Assembly (NCBI GenBank): GCA_041661425.1
Contig: JBAZUI010000001.1
Span: 8,507-72,506, forward strand
Reading direction: 5' to 3'
DNA: 64,000 nucleotides
Source: Patescibacteria group bacterium
GTDB taxonomy: Bacteria; Patescibacteriota; Patescibacteriia; UBA9934
Part shown: piece by piece, positions 5,440 through 58,453 of the stretch
Layout: each line of letters starts with the position of its first letter
How positions within the stretch are numbered: position 1 is the stretch's first letter
Made by a program: the position numbers and the translations under genes
The notes under the pieces: model-generated
The model's database searches: none
The model's input: only the letters and a program-made list of their open reading frames with translations
Told to the model about the DNA's origin: nothing

Positions 5440-5459
5440 GAGCATGCGATGCCAAAAAG

Positions 5460-5473
5460 TGTCCGATCGGACC
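5460..5473. promoter_or_regulatory. operator-like palindrome TGTCCGATCGGACC upstream of the cassette-B promoter
   Basis: Near-perfect 14-nt palindrome sharing the core GTCCGATCGGAC with the palindromes at 13029-13042 and 13140-13153. Confidence 0.5.
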
Positions 5474-5488
5474 TTTCTTGTCATCAAA

Positions 5489-5541: not shown

Positions 5542-5934
5542 ATGGCACTCAGTGACATTTCCACGGTTTTTGTCATGAGTCCCCGTCGGTTCTACCGATG
5601 GTCGCTGCTTAGCTCCGTCGTCGTCTACGCACTCGGCGCCATTGCAGGAGCGGGAGGATTCGCTTTCGCAATTGGAGTTCACGTCCTGGTCGGTTTGTGC
5701 GGGGCAGGCGCTGAACACGACCTTGACATGAAGTACGTTATGGAGTTTGACTGGAAGGTCATGACCGGAATCCAGCGATTCAAGTACTTTTTTCTTCTCC
5801 TTGCCAAGAACATTACTCAGGGGGTCTTCGCCCCGTTCGTTTTGTCGTGGTACATCTACGAACAGTGGCGAGTCCTTCGGGACAGCCTTCGGAAACGTTC
5901 GCATCTCGTCGTCACCCGGATCGACATCAAATAG
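5542..5934 (+). CDS. GC-rich hypothetical small membrane protein (130 aa)
   Basis: Third codon positions are overwhelmingly G/C, unlike the flanking genes. Strong SD, two or three predicted TM segments, no recognisable family. Start chosen at MALSD because of the RBS. Confidence 0.55.
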   Translation: MALSDISTVFVMSPRRFYRWSLLSSVVVYALGAIAGAGGFAFAIGVHVLVGLCGAGAEHDLDMKYVMEFDWKVMTGIQRFKYFFLLLAKNITQGVFAPFVLSWYIYEQWRVLRDSLRKRSHLVVTRIDIK

Positions 5935-7922: not shown

Positions 7923-10433
7923 ATGACCGAAATCGATCGTCTTATCTATCTTGCTCTCGCCCTGCTAATTGGTTCGGGATTCCTTTTGGTTTTGATCTAT
8001 GGAATCCGGTCCTTTGTGCAGAATCGACCTCCTCTGCAAACCGGGAAGTGGAAGCACGTGACGCTCATGATCACGGTGCCAAAATTCGCAAACGAGGAAG
8101 AGACACGAAATGATGGCGGGATGCAGAAATTGCAAGAACGCATTGGGATTGCCGAAACATTCTATGCGGCCGTGGGAGGATTGTCCTCACAAAAGGGAAT
8201 CACAGCCTGGTTTTTTGGTCGACAGGATCATCTTGCGCTGGAGATGGTCGCCCATGAAAAATTAATCACGTTCTACCTCACGGTTCCGCAGTATCTTTTG
8301 GAATTCGTGGAGCAACAACTTCATGCACAGTATCCCGACGCCAGCGTTCAACCGGTTGAGGATTATAATATGTTTTGCCCAACCGGGACGATTCTTGGTG
8401 GGTATGTGGAGTTAAAACGTGAGATGATTCTTCCAATCAAGACGTATAAAGAATCAGAATCCGATCCATTGAATGCCATCACTAATGCGCTTTCCAAAGT
8501 CCCCGAGGGAGAGGGAATGGCTGTGCAATATATGATCCGACCGGCGAAGTCAAGCTGGCGTTCCATGGGTCAGAGGATTTCCACAAACATGCACAAAGGC
8601 ATGAGCTATCGTGAAGCCGTAAAAGGAAAAAAGGGTTCGGGAAGTGGATGGGCGGAGATGATTTGGAAGAAGAAAGAAACCGATCCGCAAAAAGTTCAGC
8701 AAGAGAACCAACCGCGACAAATGTCACAAGCGGAGCAGGAAATGCTCAAGCGTATTGAAAATAAAATCAGCAAAGCCGGCATGGAAGTGAACATCCGATT
8801 GATGGCTTCTTCGCAAAGTGCCGATGCCGCGCAGGCAAACCTGAATCAAATCCTTCAGGCTTTTGCGCAGTACAATATCTACGAATACGGAAATGCATTT
8901 GTTAAGGCCATTCCTTCGAATAAATCGAAACTCGTCCGTGATTTTATTTATCGTCGATTTTCCACAAAGCATCAATGTCTTTTTAATACCGAGGAGATGG
9001 CCAGTCTTTGGCATTTGCCGCTTCCCACCACGGAAACGCCGTCCATCCGTTGGATGCTTGCGCGCATTGCCCCGGCGCCGGCTGGCATGCCGACGGAGGG
9101 TTTGCACATGGGGTATAACGATTATCGCGGCAAGCGCACGGATATTTTTATTAAGGAAAAAGATCGTCAGCGCCACATGTATCTCATTGGAAAAACCGGA
9201 TCGGGAAAATCGTGGTTTTTGCGGTATATGGCCGTGCAGGATATTCGCGCAGGAAAAGGTGTTTGTGTGATCGATCCGCATGGCGATTTGGTAGATGATA
9301 TTTTGGGCACGATTCCAAAAGAACGAATTGATGATGTGGTCTATTTCTGCCCGGCCGACACCGAACGTCCCATGGGACTCAATATGCTCGAGGCGCCCAA
9401 TGAGAGCATGAAAGATTTTGCGGTTCAGGAAATGATTTCGATTTTTTACATGTTATTTCCGCCGGAAATGATTGGGCCAATGTTTGAGCACAACATGCGC
9501 AATTATATGTTGACGCTCATGGCCGACCAGCATGATCTGGGAACCATTGCGGAAATTCCACGCATGATTGCCGATGATGCGTTTCAAAAATCTTGGGTTG
9601 ATAAAGTCAAAGATCCGGTTGTCATGAGTTTCTGGAAAGATGAGATGGCGAAGACGTCCGATTATCATAAATCGGAAATGATGGGCTACCTTGTTTCGAA
9701 AGTCGGACGATTCGTGGAAAACGAAATGATGCGAAATATCATCGGGCAATCAAAATCCGCTTTTAATTTCCGCGAGATTATGGATTCCGGGAAGATTTTG
9801 CTCGTGAATCTTTCAAAAGGAAAAACAGGTGAGGTCAACGCGAATCTTTTGGGTCTCATCATTGTTGCAAAATTGCAGATGGCCGCATTCTCGCGCGCGG
9901 AGCTTCCCGAAGATCAGCGCCGCGATTTCTTTCTCTATATCGACGAGTTTCAAAATTTTATCACGCCTTCTATTGCAACGATTTTGTCTGAAGCTCGAAA
10001 ATATCGCCTTAATTTGATTCTTGCACACCAATACATGGGACAGCTCGTGAAAAACAACGATACGCAGATTCGTGATTCCATTCTTGGAAACGTTGGAAAT
10101 ATGTTTGTGGCGCGTATTGGTCCGGAAGATGCGGAGATTCTCTCGAAAATTTATGAGCCGACATTTTCCGGTTACGACTTGATGAATACAGACAATTTTA
10201 CATGGAATGCAAAAATTGTGGTTGACATGGCTCAGCTCAAGCCGTTTACCATGAAAGTGGCAACACCGGATAAGCCAAATCTCAAACTTGCCGAAGCGCT
10301 CAAGGAGATGTCACGTCTAAAATATGGTCGACCAAAGGCAATGGTCGAGCAAGAAATCGCCATGCGCGCGGGCATTGGCGCTGTGGCGGCTGGCACAGAA
10401 CGCACACCACCGCCCATTCCACCAACGATGTAA
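7923..10433 (+). CDS. membrane-anchored P-loop NTPase, TraD/TraG/VirD4 (T4SS coupling protein)-like / DUF87-like
   Basis: N-terminal TM helix. Walker A LIGKTGSGKS followed by VCVIDPHGDL, Walker B FFLYIDEFQNF, and LILAHQYMGQL. The size (836 aa) and motif spacing resemble coupling-protein/HerA-FtsK superfamily ATPases. Confidence 0.6.
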   Translation: MTEIDRLIYLALALLIGSGFLLVLIYGIRSFVQNRPPLQTGKWKHVTLMITVPKFANEEETRNDGGMQKLQERIGIAETFYAAVGGLSSQKGITAWFFGRQDHLALEMVAHEKLITFYLTVPQYLLEFVEQQLHAQYPDASVQPVEDYNMFCPTGTILGGYVELKREMILPIKTYKESESDPLNAITNALSKVPEGEGMAVQYMIRPAKSSWRSMGQRISTNMHKGMSYREAVKGKKGSGSGWAEMIWKKKETDPQKVQQENQPRQMSQAEQEMLKRIENKISKAGMEVNIRLMASSQSADAAQANLNQILQAFAQYNIYEYGNAFVKAIPSNKSKLVRDFIYRRFSTKHQCLFNTEEMASLWHLPLPTTETPSIRWMLARIAPAPAGMPTEGLHMGYNDYRGKRTDIFIKEKDRQRHMYLIGKTGSGKSWFLRYMAVQDIRAGKGVCVIDPHGDLVDDILGTIPKERIDDVVYFCPADTERPMGLNMLEAPNESMKDFAVQEMISIFYMLFPPEMIGPMFEHNMRNYMLTLMADQHDLGTIAEIPRMIADDAFQKSWVDKVKDPVVMSFWKDEMAKTSDYHKSEMMGYLVSKVGRFVENEMMRNIIGQSKSAFNFREIMDSGKILLVNLSKGKTGEVNANLLGLIIVAKLQMAAFSRAELPEDQRRDFFLYIDEFQNFITPSIATILSEARKYRLNLILAHQYMGQLVKNNDTQIRDSILGNVGNMFVARIGPEDAEILSKIYEPTFSGYDLMNTDNFTWNAKIVVDMAQLKPFTMKVATPDKPNLKLAEALKEMSRLKYGRPKAMVEQEIAMRAGIGAVAAGTERTPPPIPPTM

Positions 10434-10530: not shown

Positions 10531-10564
10531 AAAGCCCTCGGCCGAGACGACGGCTGAGGGCGAG
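10531..10564 (-). terminator. 34-bp hairpin repeat (copy 1) acting as terminator of minus-strand gene C1
   Basis: AAAGCCCTCGGCCGAGACGACGGCTGAGGGCGAG. On the minus strand it forms a hairpin followed by TTTTGATCGCC. An identical copy is at 11163-11196. Confidence 0.65.
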
Positions 10565-10586
10565 CAGTCTTGCGAAGCAAAGAAAA

Positions 10587-11045
10587 TCAGGGCGCAGCCG
10601 GCATCGAGTCGATGACAGCTGTGGGAGCTGGTGGCTCCGTCGAGAGGTCGATCTGCTCGAACCCTCCACGTGGATCGCTCGGAGGCATGGGGACTGATGG
10701 GATCCCGCCGTCCACGATGATCTGGTTGATCCTCTTGGCGTTTTCACACATCATGGGATCGCCCCCGGGCGCGCACGCCTCGACGACGTCCTGCCTCGAG
10801 CGCTCGTGCGTTCGAGCCTCGATCTTGTCGAGCTCCTCGGACTCGATCTTGTCGGGATGGGCGAGGAGCCATTCAATCCTCGCTTCGTCTTCCTCCTCCG
10901 TTGGAGTTCGCGATCCCTCGACGGCCGTGCTCATGGTTTGGAAGAGGAGGTATGACGAAACGCCTCCCACACAGATTCCTCCGGTTGCGAGACAGAGGAG
11001 GAGGATGATCACGATCAGCAGAACACTGTGTTTTCTCTTTTCCAT
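10587..11045 (-). CDS. GC-rich hypothetical membrane-anchored or secreted protein (153 aa)
   Basis: Start at MEKRK (ATG complement at 11043-11045), preceded by AGGAG. N-terminal basic stretch plus a TM helix (LLIVIILLLCLATGG), then a hydrophilic Pro/Glu-rich domain. G/C-rich codons. Confidence 0.5.
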   Translation of the reverse strand: MEKRKHSVLLIVIILLLCLATGGICVGGVSSYLLFQTMSTAVEGSRTPTEEEDEARIEWLLAHPDKIESEELDKIEARTHERSRQDVVEACAPGGDPMMCENAKRINQIIVDGGIPSVPMPPSDPRGGFEQIDLSTEPPAPTAVIDSMPAAP

Positions 11046-11162: not shown

Positions 11163-11196
11163 AAAGCCCTCGGCCGAGACGACGGCTGAGGGCGAG
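11163..11196 (-). terminator. 34-bp hairpin repeat (copy 2), terminator of minus-strand gene C2
   Basis: Identical to 10531-10564. On the minus strand it is followed by TTTCGTGTTTCT. Confidence 0.65.
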
Positions 11197-11209
11197 AAGA
11201 CGAAGTAGA

Positions 11210-11353
11210 CTACCTGGCCTGGAAGTACCAGGTATGCAGATTCCCCGGGCTCGGGGAGTTAATGAGGCCACGCGACTGCAACGTGGCCACGAGAATCAAG
11301 AGCGCCAAGGCCATGAAGATCATGACCCCAATCGTACGCGGATTATCCGCCAT
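11210..11353 (-). CDS. GC-rich hypothetical small membrane peptide (47 aa)
   Basis: Start at MADNP with GGAGG 5 nt upstream. One TM helix (IGVMIFMALALLILVA). The longer track ORF (71 aa) has no SD. Confidence 0.4.
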   Translation of the reverse strand: MADNPRTIGVMIFMALALLILVATLQSRGLINSPSPGNLHTWYFQAR

Positions 11354-11386
11354 CGGAGCCTCCATGGCTTTTAGTAGACGGCTATT

Positions 11387-13015: not shown

Positions 13016-13055
13016 TGATGACAGAAGTGGTCCGATCGGACCACTTCTGTCATCA
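13016..13055. promoter_or_regulatory. 40-bp perfect palindrome TGATGACAGAAGTGGTCCGA|TCGGACCACTTCTGTCATCA (terminator for dnaX and/or operator; centre GGTCCGATCGGACC)
   Basis: Perfect 20+20 inverted repeat read directly, 17 bp upstream of the TTGACA at 13072. Confidence 0.6.
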
Positions 13056-13100: not shown

Positions 13101-13139
13101 TTTCGGTCCTTTTCTAACGTTATCGATCGTTTCATAAAT

Positions 13140-13153
13140 GGTCCGGTCGGACC
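13140..13153. promoter_or_regulatory. operator-like perfect palindrome GGTCCGGTCGGACC in the 5'UTR
   Basis: 14-nt perfect palindrome; a sibling of the core at 13029-13042 and of 5460-5473. Confidence 0.5.
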
Positions 13154-13201
13154 TTTTGTGAAACGATCACGCTCTTTCGTATTCTCATCCTGGAGGTTCC
13201 C

Positions 13202-14197
13202 ATGCTGTTCATTCTCCTTGTGGCTTGCGCGTCGCAGGTTGAGCAGGACTTCATGACTCATGACGAGGTTCTGCCTGAGGAGGAGGTTGTTGCGGAAAAA
13301 GTTTCACCGGTCCTCGCGACGATTCGACCTGAGGATGCGGCGCTCGCGGAAGCGCGACTCCTTGCGCAGAACTGTGACAACGAAGCCTTTCGGAAGGTGA
13401 CGTATCCGGATGATCCGTCGTCAACGTTCTGTCACTACATCGCGTACGCTCACTTGAGCGATCTCGAGGGTGAGTTCGATGTCTCGCAAGACATCGTCAA
13501 CCTCATCGATGTGAACTTCGAGTACATCGGGTACGAGGTGTATTGGACGACAATCGCACGCGAGAATGCGGGTTTTGCTGAGAACACTAATGTGCGATAC
13601 GTCGGTGTTCTCGAGTGGCTCTACACGCAATGGCAGGAGAAACTTGTTCAAGCGGGCCTTAAGGGAGGGGTCCGTTATAACAATCCCGCGCTCCTTCGCT
13701 CCTACCCTGCGGTTGTCACGAAATGCGAGGGCGACACGAGCTGGGGATGGACGGTTACGACTCTCAGCTACGTCGTGAGCGTGCTTCGCGGTCACCCGGG
13801 CGAGCATCACCTCTTGGACGAGAAGCTCGCCGCTGATGAGAAGATGTGGATGCGACGTGCGGCTGACACCTACCACATTGGCTGTATCGGTGACCGGGAC
13901 GAACGGAATTACGCGGAAGCGTACTTCTATTATTCCGAGGTCGGCGAAATGCCAATGGCTCGCAGGATCGCTCGCATGCAAGCCGAAGCCGGGCTTGCTC
14001 AATTGACGGGTCGAACGCCGTCATGCAACCGAGAATCCTGGTGTTCCTGGCGCCAAGGAGATCTCACCACATACATCATGTGGATGGAGAATGCGGGCAT
14101 GACGAAAGAGGAGCAATGGCTCGAGCTCAAAAAACTCGAAGCCAAACACCCGCCGCCCGAAGTCCTCGATCTCATCCGCTCTCACGAGCCGTCGTGA
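13202..14197 (+). CDS. GC-rich hypothetical lipoprotein (331 aa)
   Basis: GGAGG RBS. N-terminal MLFILLVAC is a lipobox-like signal peptide. G/C-ending codons throughout, no recognisable family. The antisense ORFs here are artefacts of GC richness. Confidence 0.55.
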   Translation: MLFILLVACASQVEQDFMTHDEVLPEEEVVAEKVSPVLATIRPEDAALAEARLLAQNCDNEAFRKVTYPDDPSSTFCHYIAYAHLSDLEGEFDVSQDIVNLIDVNFEYIGYEVYWTTIARENAGFAENTNVRYVGVLEWLYTQWQEKLVQAGLKGGVRYNNPALLRSYPAVVTKCEGDTSWGWTVTTLSYVVSVLRGHPGEHHLLDEKLAADEKMWMRRAADTYHIGCIGDRDERNYAEAYFYYSEVGEMPMARRIARMQAEAGLAQLTGRTPSCNRESWCSWRQGDLTTYIMWMENAGMTKEEQWLELKKLEAKHPPPEVLDLIRSHEPS

Positions 14198-14260: not shown

Positions 14261-14306
14261 ATGAATTGATATTCATGGTTTTTTTGTGGTTCCCGGACAG
14301 GGATTC
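14261..14306. repeat. direct repeat duplicating the 3' end of tRNA-Gln plus flank (gatattcatggtt...tggttcccggacagggattc)
   Basis: A 20-nt exact match to 14461-14480, with matching flank gatatt(t)catggtt. This is an att-like duplication of the tRNA 3' end. Confidence 0.6.
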
Positions 14307-14460: not shown

Positions 14461-14534
14461 TGGTTCCCGGACAGGGATTCGAACCCCGATTCCCAGGACC
14501 AAAACCTGGTGTCCTGCCCTTAGACGATCCGGGA
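14461..14534 (-). tRNA. tRNA-Gln (anticodon TTG)
   Basis: Reverse complement folds by hand into a cloverleaf: acceptor TCCCGGA/TCCGGGA, D-stem GTCT/GGAC, anticodon stem CCAGG/CCTGG with loop TTTTGGT, T-arm CGGGG-TTCGAAT-CCCTG, CCA encoded; 74 nt. Confidence 0.8.
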
Positions 14535-14626: not shown

Positions 14627-15718
14627 ATGGAAACGAAAAAACAGCGCGTTTTGCTTGGGATGAGCGGCGGAGTCGATTCATCGGTTGCGGCTGTTTTATT
14701 ATTGGAGGCTGGCTATGTGGTGGTTGGCACCTTCATGAAGAATTGGAGCAATGGCACACAGAATTCAGAATGTGACTGGCGCGAGGAACGTCGCGATGCC
14801 ATGCGTGTGGCCGCTCAATTGGGAATCGAGCTTCACACGTTCGATTTTGAGAAGGAGTATCGCGCCGAAGTTTTTGAATACATGATTGCTGAGTATCGAT
14901 CCGGTCGGACTCCGAATCCCGATGTCTTGTGCAATAAATACATGAAGTTTGGTTACCTTCTCAATGAATCGAAAAAACTTGGTTGTGATTTTATCGCAAC
15001 CGGTCATTATGCACGTCTTCATCGCGATGCTCGCGGTGTGGCGCATCTTTTGGCGGGTGTGGATCCAGAAAAGGATCAAAGCTATTTTTTGTGCCAGCTC
15101 ACACAGGATCAACTCAAGCATTGTCTTTTTCCGATCGGCGATCTTCTGAAATCACGTGTGCGAGAAATTGCGCGTGCGCATGAACTTCCAGTAGCTGAAA
15201 AAAAAGATAGTCAGGGAATTTGTTTTATCGGTCAAGTTTCACTTTCAGATTTTTTGAAAACACGTATTCCACCGGTTCCTGGAAAGATTGTGACACCTGA
15301 TGGAACAATCCTCGGTAATCATCAGGGCTACGCGTACTACACCATTGGTCAGCGTGAAGGGTTGGGGATTGGCGGTGGCGAGCCTTATTTTGTCACGGAG
15401 ATTCGTCCGACGACGAATGAAGTTGTCGTTGCAAAGGAAGGAGATCCCGCGCTTTTTTCAAGTGGAGTTGAGGCGATTGGTGTTTCCGAGTCGATTCCCG
15501 GAATTCTAAAATCAAAAATTTCGTATCTTGCTCGCTTGCGATATCGTCAGCCACTCCTTGCGTGCACCATCGAATCGTTTGAGAATCAAAAGATGACGGT
15601 TCGATTTACGGAAGCACAACGTGCCGTGGCTCCGGGTCAATTCATCGCATTTTATGATCAGTCGGGTGAGGAATTGCTCGGATCCGCCATCATCGACAAA
15701 GCCCTTCATTTTGAGTAG
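14627..15718 (+). CDS. mnmA: tRNA 2-thiouridine(34) synthase MnmA
   Basis: PP-loop VLLGMSGGVDSSVAA plus conserved Cys residues. The longer upstream ORF has no support. Confidence 0.9.
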   Translation: METKKQRVLLGMSGGVDSSVAAVLLLEAGYVVVGTFMKNWSNGTQNSECDWREERRDAMRVAAQLGIELHTFDFEKEYRAEVFEYMIAEYRSGRTPNPDVLCNKYMKFGYLLNESKKLGCDFIATGHYARLHRDARGVAHLLAGVDPEKDQSYFLCQLTQDQLKHCLFPIGDLLKSRVREIARAHELPVAEKKDSQGICFIGQVSLSDFLKTRIPPVPGKIVTPDGTILGNHQGYAYYTIGQREGLGIGGGEPYFVTEIRPTTNEVVVAKEGDPALFSSGVEAIGVSESIPGILKSKISYLARLRYRQPLLACTIESFENQKMTVRFTEAQRAVAPGQFIAFYDQSGEELLGSAIIDKALHFE

Positions 15719-30020: not shown

Positions 30021-31001
30021 CTATTGGGCTTTTGCTTCGAGGTCAAGGGAGGCTTGATACGCTCCTAGCATGCCATGAATTTCTTCTTTTGTCTTTGCCT
30101 CAACCAATTTCATGCGCCAGGATTTTGCCTCGGGAAGCCCTTTGAGATATTGGAGGAGATGTTTTCGAAAACTCGGGATGGCTCGTTCGCCGTATTGGGT
30201 GAGATGAAGATCGAGATGCGCTCGGATAACACGAAATCGTTCCTGCGTGTCCGCTGCGGTGATTGATTCTCCTCTCAACCGTGATTCGATTTCTTGAAAG
30301 ATCCACGGATTACCAAGCGCTCCACGACCAATCAACGCGCCGTCGCATCCGGTTTCTTCAATCGCCTTAAAAAAATCTTCAGCGCTTTGGATGTCGCCGT
30401 TATAGAGGATGGGAATTTTTGCGTTTGCCTTCACTTGTGCAATCACGTCACGTCGCGCAAGGCCAGCGTATCCTTGCGCCTGAGTACGGCCGTGAATCGA
30501 AATGAGATGAGCACCCGCCTCCTCGATAATTTTTGCAAAGGTGAGACACTCGTTTGGATCGCTCCAGCCAGTACGCATTTTAACAGATACGGGAACGGAT
30601 ACCGCCTTAACCACTGCTTGCACAATCGCCGCCGCGGTCTCGGGGTCTTTCATGAGTGCGGATCCATTAAAATTCGAAATGATTTTTCTGGCCGGGCATC
30701 CCATATTGATATCAATGCCATCGGGTTGTTTTTCTTCAACAATCCAATGAGCGGCTTCGGCCATAATCTTCGGATCAGATCCGAAAATTTGTTGAATGAT
30801 CGGGTGCTCGCTTTCGTGAATATCCGTCATCTCAACAGTCTTTTTATTCCCACGCATGATCGCTTCCGATGAGATCATTTCACGGAAAATAATCGGATGT
30901 GCCATGGTTTTCACGATGCGACAAAAGGGCGAATCCGTCATATCCGCCATGGGCGAAAGCGCCACAATCGGGTGCCTCATTTGATCCCAAGAAAAATTCA
31001 T
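30021..31001 (-). CDS. dus: tRNA-dihydrouridine synthase
   Basis: Dus TIM-barrel motifs (ALSPMADMTDSPFR, NMGCPARK, HGRTQ). Confidence 0.9.
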   Translation of the reverse strand: MNFSWDQMRHPIVALSPMADMTDSPFCRIVKTMAHPIIFREMISSEAIMRGNKKTVEMTDIHESEHPIIQQIFGSDPKIMAEAAHWIVEEKQPDGIDINMGCPARKIISNFNGSALMKDPETAAAIVQAVVKAVSVPVSVKMRTGWSDPNECLTFAKIIEEAGAHLISIHGRTQAQGYAGLARRDVIAQVKANAKIPILYNGDIQSAEDFFKAIEETGCDGALIGRGALGNPWIFQEIESRLRGESITAADTQERFRVIRAHLDLHLTQYGERAIPSFRKHLLQYLKGLPEAKSWRMKLVEAKTKEEIHGMLGAYQASLDLEAKAQ

Positions 31002-31039
31002 ATTGCGAAAACCGTGAAAAAACGATACGATAGGCTTCT

Positions 31040-31429
31040 ATGCGATTAACGTCAAATGTCTTCATGATCGGGTTTGCCGCATTGGTTCTTGGCGGCGTTG
31101 TTTTTGCCGCAACAATGGCAAGCGGTCCAAAAATCAAACTCGATGATTTTGCTCAATGTATTTCGGATTCCGGGGGAGTAATGTATGGCACCTGGTGGTG
31201 TTCCAATTGTCAAAATCAGAAAGATGATTTCGGATCTGCGTTTAAGTATATCAATTTTGTGGAATGTTCGTCGCCTGGCGGCAAGGATTTTGATCTGTGC
31301 ACGGATAAAAATATTACGGCCGTGCCGGTTTGGGAAACCGCGGAAGGCTATCGCGCGATTGGTCGACAGTCATTGACCACATTGTCGGAAATGTTTAGCT
31401 GTTCCTTGCCAGAAGGTTATGTTGAATAG
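31040..31429 (+). CDS. membrane-anchored thioredoxin-like protein (WCSNC active site)
   Basis: Signal/anchor helix, a CxxC motif in a Trx-like context, immediately upstream of the VKOR gene. Confidence 0.6.
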   Translation: MRLTSNVFMIGFAALVLGGVVFAATMASGPKIKLDDFAQCISDSGGVMYGTWWCSNCQNQKDDFGSAFKYINFVECSSPGGKDFDLCTDKNITAVPVWETAEGYRAIGRQSLTTLSEMFSCSLPEGYVE

Positions 31430-31859
31430 AAAGTGGTTGCTCATTATTTTGCTTGCGGCGAGTAGCGTTGGCATTGTCGCGGCTGGTTTTTCTACGGCTG
31501 CGCATTGGAATACAGGGCTTTATGGATTCTGCGAGCTTGGGGAATATTTTAATTGCAATGTCGTGAATACGAGCAAATATGCGGAAATCATGGGAGTGCC
31601 GGTTGCTTTATTTGGATTGCTTTCGTATACGGCTTTTTTTATTTACGGATTAATCTCGTTGAAAAAGCCATCATTGATTCTTTCGACATTCGCGGGCTCG
31701 CTCGCGATTGTGGGTCTTGGATTTAGTTTGTACTTATCGAGTGTTGAAGCATTTATTTTGCATACGTGGTGCGTTGTGTGTATTACGTCGCAAGTTGCCA
31801 TCATTCTTGTTGCGGCTTGCGTCTTTTGGATTCGATCAATTGATTCGAAAAACATGTAA
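31419..31859 (+). CDS. vitamin K epoxide reductase (VKOR) family protein
   Basis: Four or five TM helices, loop Cys pair (CELGEYFNC) and active-site CVVC. Confidence 0.75.
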   Translation: MLNRKWLLIILLAASSVGIVAAGFSTAAHWNTGLYGFCELGEYFNCNVVNTSKYAEIMGVPVALFGLLSYTAFFIYGLISLKKPSLILSTFAGSLAIVGLGFSLYLSSVEAFILHTWCVVCITSQVAIILVAACVFWIRSIDSKNM

Positions 31860-31879
31860 GAATTTTCGCAACTCGACCA

Positions 31880-31908
31880 TTGACAAATCGAGATTTTTGT
31901 TTTAGCGT
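31880..31908 (+). promoter_or_regulatory. sigma70-like promoter TTGACA-17-TAGCGT
   Basis: Canonical -35 and a TAnnnT -10, with RBS AAGGAG at 31927-31932. Confidence 0.4.
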
Positions 31909-31941
31909 GATTGATGCCTCAAGAGCAAGGAGCACCCCAAT

Positions 31942-32262
31942 ATGTCCGCTCTCTCCGTGCCGGACTTCATGGCGATCACGTGCCAGCTGGTCTCGGGTCT
32001 TTTCTCCTGTGCGGCCATTATCGCGCTCGCGGTGATGGCCTTCGCCTGGCACCGCACCCGTACGCGGTGTGCGAAGCTCGAACACGAGAACATGATTCTC
32101 GGCCATCTTCTCTACATGAATGAGAAGAAGCCTGGAATCTATAGAAAGATGATCATTCAGGTCTCTTTGCCTGAAGGTCAAAAAACCGTTCATCTGCACA
32201 GCGAGTACATGTCGTCGTCTTCTGTGGTCAGGTACTACGTGGACGACGTCGTCCCGAAGTGA
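31942..32262 (+). CDS. GC-rich hypothetical small membrane protein (106 aa)
   Basis: One TM helix (ITCQLVSGLFSCAAIIALAVMAFAW). G/C-ending codons contrast sharply with its neighbours. Confidence 0.5.
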   Translation: MSALSVPDFMAITCQLVSGLFSCAAIIALAVMAFAWHRTRTRCAKLEHENMILGHLLYMNEKKPGIYRKMIIQVSLPEGQKTVHLHSEYMSSSSVVRYYVDDVVPK

Positions 32263-32296
32263 AGACGATCTGCTCGCCATCGACTCCCGGAGGCCT

Positions 32297-32330
32297 CCCC
32301 AGCGCACACGGTGCTCTGGGGCTTTTGTTA
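32297..32330 (+). terminator. rho-independent terminator (CCCCAGCGCAC...GTGCTCTGGGG + CTTTTGTTATTTT)
   Basis: GC stem with one mismatch, followed by a T-run. Confidence 0.5.
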
Positions 32331-32897
32331 TTTTAAGACGGTTTTATAAAAAGAGGATCGCGAGGAATCCTCCGGATTGAAAATTATTTCCTTTTGTACG
32401 TAAGAGAGCGTATTGATTTTGATGGCCTGATTTGACAAAGCGATTTGCTGATCATCAAAAGTGACCATGGTCTCTCCATCAATCGCCGCAATCTCGAGTT
32501 CATTGAGCCAGCTATAATGCACCATGGACGTTGTACCCGATACGGTCGTGAGAATTTCGCGAGTCGCGATCATTAATTCGCCGTCCACGACCATTCGTCC
32601 TTGAAGAAGGTTGACGGTTTCTTGTCCTTCGCGGCCGTCGATGATTTCGAGTTCCGTATTTTCATCGAGCCAGATGTCCGCGGTTCCAAGAACAAGATGG
32701 AGAGGTGATGATTCGGTAAAAGTTGAAATATCATCCCCACGACAATACATTTTTTCATCGGCTTGCGCGCAGGCATGGGTCAGTAATCCTTCGCCTCCGG
32801 CAAATGTGGCGTTCAAACGATTCCCAACCAGCAAAATGCTCCCGATTGATGCAAGTAGAAGAATCAGCGCGCGATACTCGTATTCGTGGTTCGCCAT
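32328..32897 (-). CDS. hypothetical secreted protein
   Basis: Start at MANHEYEY; signal-peptide-like hydrophobic stretch, no recognisable family. Confidence 0.4.
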   Translation of the reverse strand: MANHEYEYRALILLLASIGSILLVGNRLNATFAGGEGLLTHACAQADEKMYCRGDDISTFTESSPLHLVLGTADIWLDENTELEIIDGREGQETVNLLQGRMVVDGELMIATREILTTVSGTTSMVHYSWLNELEIAAIDGETMVTFDDQQIALSNQAIKINTLSYVQKEIIFNPEDSSRSSFYKTVLK

Positions 32898-32898
32898 A

Positions 32899-33750
32899 TT
32901 ATTCCATGCGCTCAATCCAATGTGAATCCGTCTCAACGCGAAGATCCAAATAAACTTTTCGATCACTCACGGCTTCAAGTTCGTGTCGGGTTGATTGTCC
33001 AATTTCCTTAATTCCACGCCCGCCTTGGCCGACGATCATTCGTTCATACCGTTTTTCGCTGGTGAAAATAACGGCTTTGATGTAGACCGTGCCGTCCGGA
33101 CGTTCATCGATTTCTTCAACCTGGACCGAAACCGAGTAGGGGACTTCATCACGTAAACGCAAATAGAGTTTTTCGCGAATGAGCTCCGCAATTCGTTCTT
33201 CCATGGTGAGATTGGTGCATTCGCCTCCTGGATAGAGAAGTTCTCCTTCCGGGAGGTGGGCAAGGATCCAAGTGACAATCAAATTTGTATTAAAACCGGT
33301 CATGGCCGATACTTCAATCGTCTGATCAAAATTTTTTGAGAGATCGCGGTAGAAATCAAGAAAACGCTCTGCCTCCTTATCGTCGATTTTATTGATGACG
33401 AGCAGTGTTGGTTTTTTTGCTCCGCGGACAATCTGGAGCATCTTTTTTTCCTCATCGCCAATGTCGCGCGTTGGGTCCACCACGTAGACAACCACGTCAA
33501 GCTCCGCAAGAGCATTTTCGATATATTGCGTGAGCTTTTTCGTGAGCGGATCCTTCGCTTTTTGCATGAAGCCGGGAGTATCCACAAAAACAATCTGACC
33601 CTCGGGTTTGGTGACAATCCCTTGGATGGGTCGGCGCGTGGTTTGTGGCTTTGGTGTGGTAATGGCCACTTTTGTGCCCACGATTGTGTTGAGAAGCGTT
33701 GATTTTCCGACATTTGACCGCCCAACAATGGCGGCAAAACCTGATTTCAT
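32899..33750 (-). CDS. era: GTPase Era
   Basis: G1 GRSNVGKSTL, G3 DTPG, G4 NKID, plus a KH domain. Confidence 0.93.
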   Translation of the reverse strand: MKSGFAAIVGRSNVGKSTLLNTIVGTKVAITTPKPQTTRRPIQGIVTKPEGQIVFVDTPGFMQKAKDPLTKKLTQYIENALAELDVVVYVVDPTRDIGDEEKKMLQIVRGAKKPTLLVINKIDDKEAERFLDFYRDLSKNFDQTIEVSAMTGFNTNLIVTWILAHLPEGELLYPGGECTNLTMEERIAELIREKLYLRLRDEVPYSVSVQVEEIDERPDGTVYIKAVIFTSEKRYERMIVGQGGRGIKEIGQSTRHELEAVSDRKVYLDLRVETDSHWIERME

Positions 33751-41213: not shown

Positions 41214-41531
41214 ATGAAAATTAAATTCTTTAGTCGAGAGATCGAGGAGTTTATTATAAGACTGGAAAAGCCAACGATCGCAAAGGTCTTACGGAGCTTT
41301 GATCTACTCGAAAAATTTGGTAATCAAATCGGCATGCCTCATAGTAAGGCATTGAGTGATGGGCTGTTCGAATTGAGAATTCGCGGAGTTCAGGAAGTGA
41401 GATTCTTATACTTTTTTAAAAAGACAGAAATGATTGTGATTTTGAGCGGTTTTTTAAAAAAGACAAATTCGATGCCGGTTCGGGAAATGCGGTTGGCAAA
41501 GCAACGGAAAAAAGAGCTTGACGCGATATAA
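41214..41531 (+). CDS. higB: HigB/RelE-superfamily toxin (Gp49-like)
   Basis: LFELRIRGVQEVRFLYFF...IVILSGFLKKT matches the Gp49/HigB-like toxin family. Followed by an XRE antitoxin. Confidence 0.75.
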   Translation: MKIKFFSREIEEFIIRLEKPTIAKVLRSFDLLEKFGNQIGMPHSKALSDGLFELRIRGVQEVRFLYFFKKTEMIVILSGFLKKTNSMPVREMRLAKQRKKELDAI

Positions 41532-41545
41532 CATATACGTTATAT

Positions 41546-41827
41546 TTGATGTGTATGAAAGATTATCAAATTTTGAAAAAAGAATTATTGTCCGATACCG
41601 AAATTCGAAAGGCTTACGAGGCATTGGGACCGGAATATTCGATTATTGAGAAGTTAATCGAGAAACGATTAAAACAGGGGATGTCACAAAAGCAATTAGC
41701 AAAAATTCTCGGCACAAAACAGTCTGCCATTTCTCGCTTTGAATCCGGTTCTTACAATCCCACCATTTCATTTCTTTATAAAATCGCCGATGCGCTCGAT
41801 GTAAAATTGACGATGACGGTTAAATAA
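41546..41827 (+). CDS. higA: HTH XRE-family antitoxin (HigA-like)
   Basis: HTH motif GMSQKQLAKILGTKQSAISRFESG. Confidence 0.8.
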   Translation: MMCMKDYQILKKELLSDTEIRKAYEALGPEYSIIEKLIEKRLKQGMSQKQLAKILGTKQSAISRFESGSYNPTISFLYKIADALDVKLTMTVK

Positions 41828-58249: not shown

Positions 58250-58278
58250 TTGACAAAAGGCCGATTTTATGGTATACT
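58250..58278 (+). promoter_or_regulatory. strong sigma70 promoter TTGACA-17-TGgTATACT (extended -10)
   Basis: Perfect -35, 17-nt spacer, extended TG and a near-consensus -10; drives the 41-aa peptide gene. Confidence 0.6.
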
Positions 58279-58327
58279 AATACTTGTATCAGGCAATCCC
58301 GCCTGAATCCCCGCCGGAGGACTTCCC

Positions 58328-58453
58328 ATGTCCACCCGCCCCAACAATGCCCCTTTTGGCCTTGCGAATGATATCGCGGGGCACCTCCTTTTTTCCGCCG
58401 CCGGCCTCACGCTGGCGGTCCTCATCCTTCTCTGCATGGGCACCCCTTACTAG
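58328..58453 (+). CDS. GC-rich hydrophobic micro-peptide (41 aa, one TM helix)
   Basis: GGAGGA 6 nt upstream of the ATG. Peptide MSTRPNNAPFGLANDIAGHLLFSAAGLTLAVLILLCMGTPY. Sits between a strong promoter and a hairpin terminator. Confidence 0.5.
   Translation: MSTRPNNAPFGLANDIAGHLLFSAAGLTLAVLILLCMGTPY

Follow-up and report, generated by a model that had tools for sequence, protein, structure and literature searches.

A GC3-rich orphan gene for a small membrane protein near era in a Patescibacteria genome, and the class of small genes that it joins

How does a short gene whose base composition is unlike that of its neighbours come to lie, as a self-contained unit by its sequence, among housekeeping genes that are conserved in order across related bacteria? 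This question is raised by a locus in the chromosome of a member of the Patescibacteria, represented by a metagenome-assembled genome (MAG) from which a stretch of 64,000 nucleotides (nt) was analysed. This whole stretch is referred to as the window, and coordinates follow its numbering, those in other genomes being preceded by the name of the locus. The gene in question, called the target hereafter, is an intact open reading frame (ORF) of the plus strand (31942-32262) that runs from an ATG start to a TGA stop and encodes a protein of 106 amino acids (aa), with a mass of 11.98 kDa and a pI of 8.9. It is carried by the NCBI and JGI annotation as the predicted protein WC730_00215, under the NCBI label 'MAG: hypothetical protein WC730_00215 [Patescibacteria group bacterium]'. 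A first-pass annotation, made from the letters of the window, had described it as a cassette inserted between the genes for VKOR and Era. The explanation to which we give a little more credence than doubt is that the target is a moron-like, independently transcribed and fast-evolving accessory envelope gene that came from, or is exchanged with, a GC-richer gene pool.

The base composition of the target is unlike that of the genes that flank it. Its GC content is 0.545, against 0.473 for the window, and amounts to 0.51, 0.38 and 0.74 at the first, second and third codon positions, respectively. When the GC content at third codon positions (GC3) was compared with that of 1153 in-frame windows of 107 codons drawn from 36 host genes, the target value of 0.738 lay far above the host mean of 0.464 (standard deviation 0.052, maximum 0.607; z = +5.3), and 0/1153 host windows equalled or exceeded it. 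The score of the target for host synonymous codons is correspondingly poor (z = -3.6, within the lowest 0.26%). The shift is general: at twofold sites NNC stands in place of NNT, with a C/(C+T) fraction of 0.72 against 0.11-0.36 in host genes, and NNG in place of NNA, with a G/(A+G) fraction of 0.71 against 0.24-0.42. In the neighbouring genes (VKOR, thioredoxin-like and FecR-like), GC3 is 0.45-0.49. The G/C-ending codons to which the first-pass annotation had drawn attention are thus borne out by quantitative analysis, which finds a usage that is not host-like. Translational selection was considered as a cause of the GC3 excess and ruled out, as the genes for ribosomal proteins S13 (GC3 0.44) and S11 (0.43) and for DnaK (0.49) use codons as the host does; since these genes are free of the bias, selection associated with high expression is not the cause of the GC3 of the target.

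The target shares this composition with a class of small genes found in two genomes. Comparisons drew on 117 fetched loci. A scan of GTDB with Era gave one close relative, the MAG JBAYHI010000002.1 (L001, referred to as the sister genome), in which Era is 80% identical; the region of the sister genome that is syntenic with window positions 1-22000 is designated L116. The class comprises ten units, six in the window and four in the sister genome. In a leave-one-out comparison of a class codon model with a host codon model, the log-likelihood ratio was above zero in 10/10 units and below zero in 36/36 host genes, reaching +20.5 over 98 codons (0.21 per codon) for the target, while the highest value of any host gene was -0.13 per codon. 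The grouping of the target with the other cassettes proposed in the first-pass annotation holds, therefore, at the level of composition. One member, upstream of cysS, is a GC-rich ORF for a membrane protein of 130 aa (5542-5934, plus strand; GC3 0.66), whose counterpart upstream of cysS in the sister genome is a gene for a 118-aa protein with a transmembrane (TM) segment (L116:4561-4917, plus strand; GC3 0.82). Their products match in BLASTP with E = 6e-12 at 29% identity, so that the two are demonstrably positional orthologues, and the neighbouring genes of the two genomes are, by comparison, 51-91% identical. A second slot, between a VirD4-like gene and dnaX, holds two tandem TM genes on the minus strand in each genome, encoding 152 and 51 aa in the window (10587-11045 and 11210-11365) and 41 aa each in the sister genome (L116:9515-9640 and 9764-9889). 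In both genomes these genes are monocistronic and GC3-rich, and every one of them has its own TTGACA promoter and GC hairpin terminator; the resemblance of their sequences is marginal (p about 0.01).

The slot of the target is itself occupied in the sister genome. Gene order in L001 is identical to that of the window locus, and its genes are conserved to varying degrees (RimK 82-85%, VKOR 62%, thioredoxin-like 64-66%, FecR-like 50-51% identity). In the same position and orientation lies an ORF different from the target, P0002 (L001:7489-7935, 148 aa), which is also an orphan by homology search. Its GC3 is 0.64, against 0.41-0.56 in its neighbours, its start is preceded by GGAGG, and it is followed by a terminator of -28.5 kcal/mol that abuts the stop of the FecR-like gene, as in the window. 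Moreover, its single TM helix peaks at residue 16, the same residue as in the target, and the promoter block of the target, ATTGACnnATCGnGnTTTTT, agrees with the L001 slot in 19 positions out of 26 (p = 0.02 when the upstream regions are compared). This block occurs once in the window and, among the 117 loci, solely in the same slot of the sister contig. The coding sequences themselves show no significant resemblance: comparison of the target with P0002 gave E = 0.87 in BLASTP, p = 0.8 in Smith-Waterman alignment of the proteins and p = 0.45 for their C-terminal domains, while alignment of the coding DNA gave p = 0.40 and a frame-shifted comparison found no match. Candidate shared motifs (HxxM-LG--LY, P(E/D)G and YYV(D/E)) were dropped after failing the BLASTP, shuffle, DNA and frame-shift tests.

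In more distant relatives, in which Era is 58-63% identical (L037, L044 and L070), the synteny of era with the FecR-like gene is kept, as it is in L001, and the interval between the FecR-like gene and the VKOR gene contains a gene with MBL/beta-CASP domains and one for an acidic protein of 76 aa, together with other small lineage-specific ORFs (L044:6736-7137 and L070:5861-6127). No empty slot was found among five syntenic loci. The interval is evolutionarily plastic. In the same three loci, a small glutaredoxin/thioredoxin-like gene with a CPHC motif lies between era and the FecR-like gene; neither it, the MBL/beta-CASP gene nor the gene for the 76-aa acidic protein is present at the era locus of the window or of the sister genome. 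The spacer 3' of the FecR-like gene in L037 (L037:4572-4776) contains no ORF and is composed of short repeated words (CAAACTTAGTTT, AAGCTAAGCTTT and AAGCTTTGATTTA).

Searches of very large collections establish that the target is an orphan protein. A word-indexed search of 5.8 billion clustered proteins returned the target itself and nothing else, and a full phmmer search of 1.84 billion representatives returned the target and P0003 (E = 4.5e-5). The latter is a protein of 1248 aa with eight near-identical tandem repeats, Calx-beta-like by eye, and was rejected as a spurious homologue, its score being summed over eight non-independent copies that match query residues 58-91. There was no credible match to Pfam, NCBIfam, PHROGs, PADLOC or the sequences of the PDB, no relative among GenBank phages and PLSDB plasmids (both searched by tblastn) or IMG/VR viral contigs, and no Rfam match within 31000-33000. 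Nor did a search with phmmer --max of all 8226 ORFs from the 117 fetched loci yield a bridging homologue. A remote similarity to the product of 5542-5934, which the first-pass annotation had put forward for checking, was not found (Smith-Waterman score 23, shuffles 25.6 +/- 4.2, p = 0.76). Scores against the other GC-rich units were likewise within the shuffle range (p = 0.76-0.97), and a wider set of pairwise tests gave no comparison with the target at p <= 0.05.

The anatomy proposed for the unit could be located in full, and at the level of sequence the target forms a complete, autonomous-looking unit with a promoter, a ribosome-binding site, an ORF and a terminator. The putative promoter (31879-31908, plus strand) is of the sigma-70 type, with a consensus -35 box (TTGACA, 31880-31885) separated by a T-rich spacer of 17 nt from a weak -10 box (TAGCGT, 31903-31908). 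The latter matches 3/6 consensus positions, which is why the promoter was not listed by the consensus scan, and the promoter call therefore rests mainly on its position and on the conservation of the ATTGACnnATCGnGnTTTTT block in the sister genome. TTGACA occurs 25 times on the two strands of the window, which is no enrichment over a chance expectation of roughly 31 by our own estimate. A Shine-Dalgarno motif, AAGGAG, is read at 31927-31932, 9 nt 5' of the ATG. Downstream of the ORF, a predicted intrinsic terminator (32297-32334, plus strand) consists of a hairpin (32297-32321) with the stem CCCCAG.GCAC...GTGC.CTGGGG (-16.9 kcal/mol), followed by a U-run (32322-32334; CTTTTGTTATTTT) that runs across the stop codon (32328-32330) of the FecR-like gene, which is convergent with the unit. 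A simple terminator scan overlooked this hairpin, probably owing to its internal bulge. Between the VKOR gene and the target unit, reading of the sequence reveals no terminator that would belong to VKOR. It would be expected from this arrangement that transcription from the sigma-70-type promoter yields a short leader with a strong Shine-Dalgarno motif and is ended by the GC hairpin and U-run just before the convergent era/FecR-like operon.

The product contains one hydrophobic segment (residues ~9-36, maximum of 2.41 over 19 residues on the Kyte-Doolittle scale), for which the codons span 31966-32049 of the plus strand. The net charge is -1 before this helix and +2 after it, where a basic stretch, HRTRTRCAK, follows, and the positive-inside rule predicts an N-out/C-in topology. 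A single-sequence AlphaFold2 (AF2) model places residues 6-62 in a helix and residues 68-105 in three strands, with a predicted local distance difference test (pLDDT) value of 65 and a predicted template modelling score (pTM) of 0.28, which makes it too weak for fold comparison; the C-terminal segment of ~39 aa to which the three predicted beta-strands are assigned in this weak model corresponds to 32143-32259 (plus strand). The protein would thus probably be held in the cytoplasmic membrane by its N-terminal helix, N-out/C-in, so that its remainder, a stalk of helix and a small C-terminal domain rich in beta-strands, would face the cytoplasm.

One alternative would deny that there is a protein gene on the plus strand at all: the target ORF would have arisen by chance in GC-rich spacer DNA, or the gene proper would be the antisense ORF at 31801-32307 (minus strand), downstream of the FecR-like gene. 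We give it very little credence. The antisense register is fully open over 168 aa, with a host-like GC content by codon position (0.66, 0.41 and 0.49) and a GGGAG before an internal ATG, and a homologue of the target that could prove purifying selection was not found. The openness of this register is explained, however, by the avoidance of A-ending codons in the target gene. When the six frames were compared under a coding model built from in-frame versus out-of-frame codon scores of the host, the plus frame was the best of the six (0.072, against -0.026 for the antisense frame; the in-frame average for host genes is 0.218 +/- 0.064, and their antisense register averages -0.201 +/- 0.109). The plus frame fits the host base profile at the first two codon positions and the antisense frame does not, its C content being 0.37 at position 1 and 0.13 at position 2. 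The antisense product would moreover be Arg-rich and of low complexity, and its ORF overlaps the 3' end of the VKOR gene and crosses both the hairpin and the promoter. The strong GC3 periodicity, the clean TM helix, the Shine-Dalgarno motif, the terminator and the gene predictions of the two public sources all fit the plus strand, and the same type of architecture recurs in nine other units. On the coding-model scores and the positional base composition, the antisense ORF was ruled out as a true gene; the plus ORF is the gene and its strand the coding strand.

As to where such a gene comes from, the most likely origin, within the reading that we favour, would be a GC-richer pool, that is, other Patescibacteria or their mobile elements, followed by rapid divergence or allele replacement in situ. 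It has been reported that most detected transfers into Patescibacteria originate in other Patescibacteria (PMC12455944), and the era loci of related Patescibacteria (L037-L115, Era 47-63% identical) range in genomic GC from 0.39 to 0.66 and in GC3 from 0.32 to 0.82, so that GC-rich donors exist within the clade. The target would then be a member of a lineage-specific class of genes for small membrane proteins and lipoproteins that occupy fixed intergenic slots, are rich in GC3 and diverge far faster than their housekeeping neighbours, and it would most likely act in the envelope as an accessory factor under diversifying pressure, for example in excluding phages or in contact with other cells or a host. 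Several points weigh against this reading. Housekeeping orthologues of the window and the sister genome differ at ~50-55% of third positions, and by a rough two-state estimate the GC3 excess of a gene acquired ahead of the split should by now be mostly gone; the class genes of both genomes have kept GC3 values of 0.64-0.82, and simple ancient transfer is therefore insufficient. Since the target has no homologue anywhere in the collections searched, it is not possible to demonstrate a donor or selection acting on the protein, and as target and P0002 share no significant similarity, the orthology of the two coding sequences is unproven. In addition, the -10 box is weak as read from the sequence, the promoter-like and terminator-like sites around the target are in no excess over shuffles, and the envelope role (phage exclusion, cell contact) is a guess by analogy. 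The GC3 excess of the class would call for either renewal from a GC-rich pool or a force that maintains the bias.

The second of these possibilities is taken up by a different explanation, possible if unlikely, in which the target is a native, vertically inherited and very fast-evolving gene whose GC3 is maintained internally, for example through selection acting on its codons or messenger RNA or through GC-biased gene conversion, the gene lying at a recombination hot spot. The sister genome agrees with the window in slot, orientation, promoter block and the position of the TM helix, the sibling at 5542-5934 is orthologous at 29% identity with a high GC3 in the window copy (0.66) as in the sister copy (0.82), an import undergoing passive amelioration would not be expected to remain so GC-rich at a third-position divergence of ~0.5, and no donor appears among the 5.8 billion proteins. 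No internal process is known, however, that would shift GC3 from 0.46 to 0.74 in a handful of short genes and nowhere else, the bias is missing from dnaK and the ribosomal genes, which are highly expressed, and orphans generally fit the GC and GC3 of their genomes (PMC11293555). Furthermore, in ~30 related era loci the small TM ORFs preceded by a Shine-Dalgarno motif have a GC3 excess of <= 0.10; this clade scan, which required the motif, is small, misses some known units and is indicative only, and the GC3-rich class seems confined to this lineage. Rather doubtful is the further proposal that the lineage keeps small envelope genes in fixed slots with strong promoters and terminators of their own, where the sequences turn over while GC3-rich usage is actively maintained across speciation; if it were true, it would imply either slot-specific allele replacement, supplied by a common GC-rich pool of genes and working by way of the conserved promoter and terminator flanks, or a codon regime specific to the gene class, and hence a moron-like diversification system in a cellular genome rather than in a phage. 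That the target is a recently inserted mobile cassette, one of a family landing between host genes, as the first-pass annotation supposed, appears improbable. The unit is autonomous in appearance and its codon usage is not that of the host, the slot is plastic, with quite different genes in the same interval of distant relatives, and one class unit (13202-14197) is missing from the sister genome. Yet neither direct nor inverted repeats flank the unit, it has no att- or attC-like site, and it has no DNA in common with the other units; the sister slot is occupied, with the same promoter block kept; and no integrase or transposase is found near the target by the ORF list and a Pfam scan, nor any phage, plasmid or viral-contig relative. 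Searches for the scars of mobile elements, by repeats across the whole window and locally, gave nothing convincing, the local pairs being short and imperfect (for example, 22 nt at 73%) and the inverted repeats around the unit weak and short only. Of the inserted cassette, foreign-type codon usage and membership of a shared class thus stand, and recent insertion, mobility signatures and similarity to other units do not; the class looks like one whose genes keep their positions and diverge fast, or are replaced one allele at a time, and not like a new insertion. We attach next to no probability to the view that the target is the small membrane toxin of a type I toxin-antitoxin-like module under the control of an antisense RNA. 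Its product is small, with a hydrophobic N-terminal helix encoded by a unit of autonomous appearance, and an antisense RNA could start from a promoter-like site that the ORF contains on its minus strand (32181 to 32152); promoter-like sites of this kind, however, occur at chance frequency (3 against 2.0 +/- 1.3 expected), and there is no match in Rfam, PADLOC, Pfam or NCBIfam. Type I toxin peptides usually have fewer than 60 aa, and the target, at 106 aa with a soluble domain of ~70 aa, is above the usual toxin size, for which reason it fits these toxins poorly.

Among known systems, the closest in layout are the morons of phages, for the definition of which, and for gp15 of HK97, a small inner-membrane superinfection-exclusion protein, the reader is referred to Cumby, Davidson & Maxwell 2012 (PMC3594210). 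Like HK97 gene 15, the target is a single short gene that lies between genes unrelated to it and has, at the level of its sequence, a promoter and a factor-independent terminator to itself, a composition unlike that of its neighbours and a small membrane product that has no wider homologues. Unlike a moron, it is flanked not by a prophage but by syntenic housekeeping genes (dus, trx/VKOR, era), it has no PHROG match, and no related genome was found in which its flanking genes are adjacent. It is therefore not a moron by membership. With ORFan genes (PMC11293555; reviewed in PMC12315717) it shares its short length, its lack of homologues, its place between conserved genes and its belonging to a fast-diverging class. 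It has been shown that orphans usually fit the GC and GC3 of their genome, phage-like orphans being lower (Vakirlis & Kupczok 2024, PMC11293555), and the target and its class differ from these in a GC3 enrichment of +0.27, in two diverged genomes. The single-gene transfers and genomic islets described in Patescibacteria (PMC12455944) resemble it in atypical codon usage, in their Patescibacteria host and in the existence of GC-richer potential donors, whereas the target has no identifiable donor, integrase, tRNA or repeat boundary and its slot is filled in the sister genome. Integron cassettes are likewise single-ORF units of foreign composition, several to a genome, but the target has its own promoter and terminator, no attC-like repeat, integrase or attI is found, and the units are scattered instead of forming an array; the target is thus no integron cassette. 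The target is best filed as a lineage-specific orphan accessory gene, atypical in its GC3 enrichment. It is ordinary in kind, and one feature alone is left unexplained, namely the GC3 bias that persists in its class.

Two further members of the class lie elsewhere in the window. A GC-rich unit of 331 aa with a lipoprotein-like signal sequence, MLFILLVACAS, is found between dnaX and the gene for tRNA-Gln (13202-14197, plus strand), and has no counterpart in the sister genome; a single-TM ORF of 41 aa with a GC3 of 0.76 lies at 58328-58453 (plus strand), within a feature spanning 58250-58453 in which a putative, near-consensus promoter (TTGACA-17-TATACT) is followed by GGAGGA. Upstream of the former unit there is a near-perfect palindrome of ~40 bp (13016-13055; overlapping arms of 24 nt, 100% complementary) with the core GGTCCGATCGGACC, and relatives of this palindrome occur at 13128-13166 and, upstream of the 5542 unit, at 5448-5486. 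Copies of GGTCCGATCGGACC are present at 5460, 13029 and 13140 only, in addition to one with 3 mismatches at 14898. None lies within 17 kb of the target unit, in agreement with the earlier statement that it shares no operator with the other units. A partial copy of the 3' end of the tRNA-Gln gene (14282-14306; 92% of 25 nt) lies 155 bp from the gene itself (14461-14534, minus strand), and the sister slot also holds a partial tRNA-Gln copy; the arrangement may be the scar of an old integration. In the VirD4-like-to-dnaX slot of the window, the two tandem small genes are followed by copies of one 37-nt terminator hairpin sequence (10531-10567 and 11163-11199) that are 97% identical to each other.

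The surroundings of the target are cellular and syntenic across relatives, comprising dus, a rimK-like gene, trx/VKOR, era and a CYTH-like gene. The dus gene (30021-31001, minus strand) is followed by a thioredoxin-like gene (31040-31429, plus strand) that precedes the VKOR-family gene (31419-31859, plus strand; Pfam PF07884, E = 7.7e-22), the upstream neighbour of the target. Beyond the unit, and convergent with it, lie a gene for a membrane-anchored, weakly FecR-like protein of 189 aa (32328-32897, minus strand) and era (32899-33750, minus strand). VKOR thus bounds the unit on one side, as had been stated, whereas the FecR-like ORF, of which no mention had been made, separates the unit from era. 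Several of the closer named homologues of DnaX, at ~46-48% identity, belong to Candidatus Uhrbacteria. A low-GC (0.37-0.38) gene pair at 41214-41827 (plus strand), with matches to Gp49/HigB-like (Pfam E = 8.4e-20) and HTH_3 (E = 3.7e-18), is probably a toxin-antitoxin module.

Taken alone, the target is one more orphan gene for a hypothetical membrane protein in a phylum rich in them. What is worth keeping is the pattern of its class, in which small membrane genes with non-host codons, independently transcribed as we infer from their sequences, occupy the same slots across ~50% third-position divergence. If this pattern is general, it would mark a fast-evolving surface or envelope repertoire of ultrasmall, probably host-dependent bacteria, and would offer a concrete test case for the origin of bacterial orphan genes by transfer, divergence or in-place replacement.

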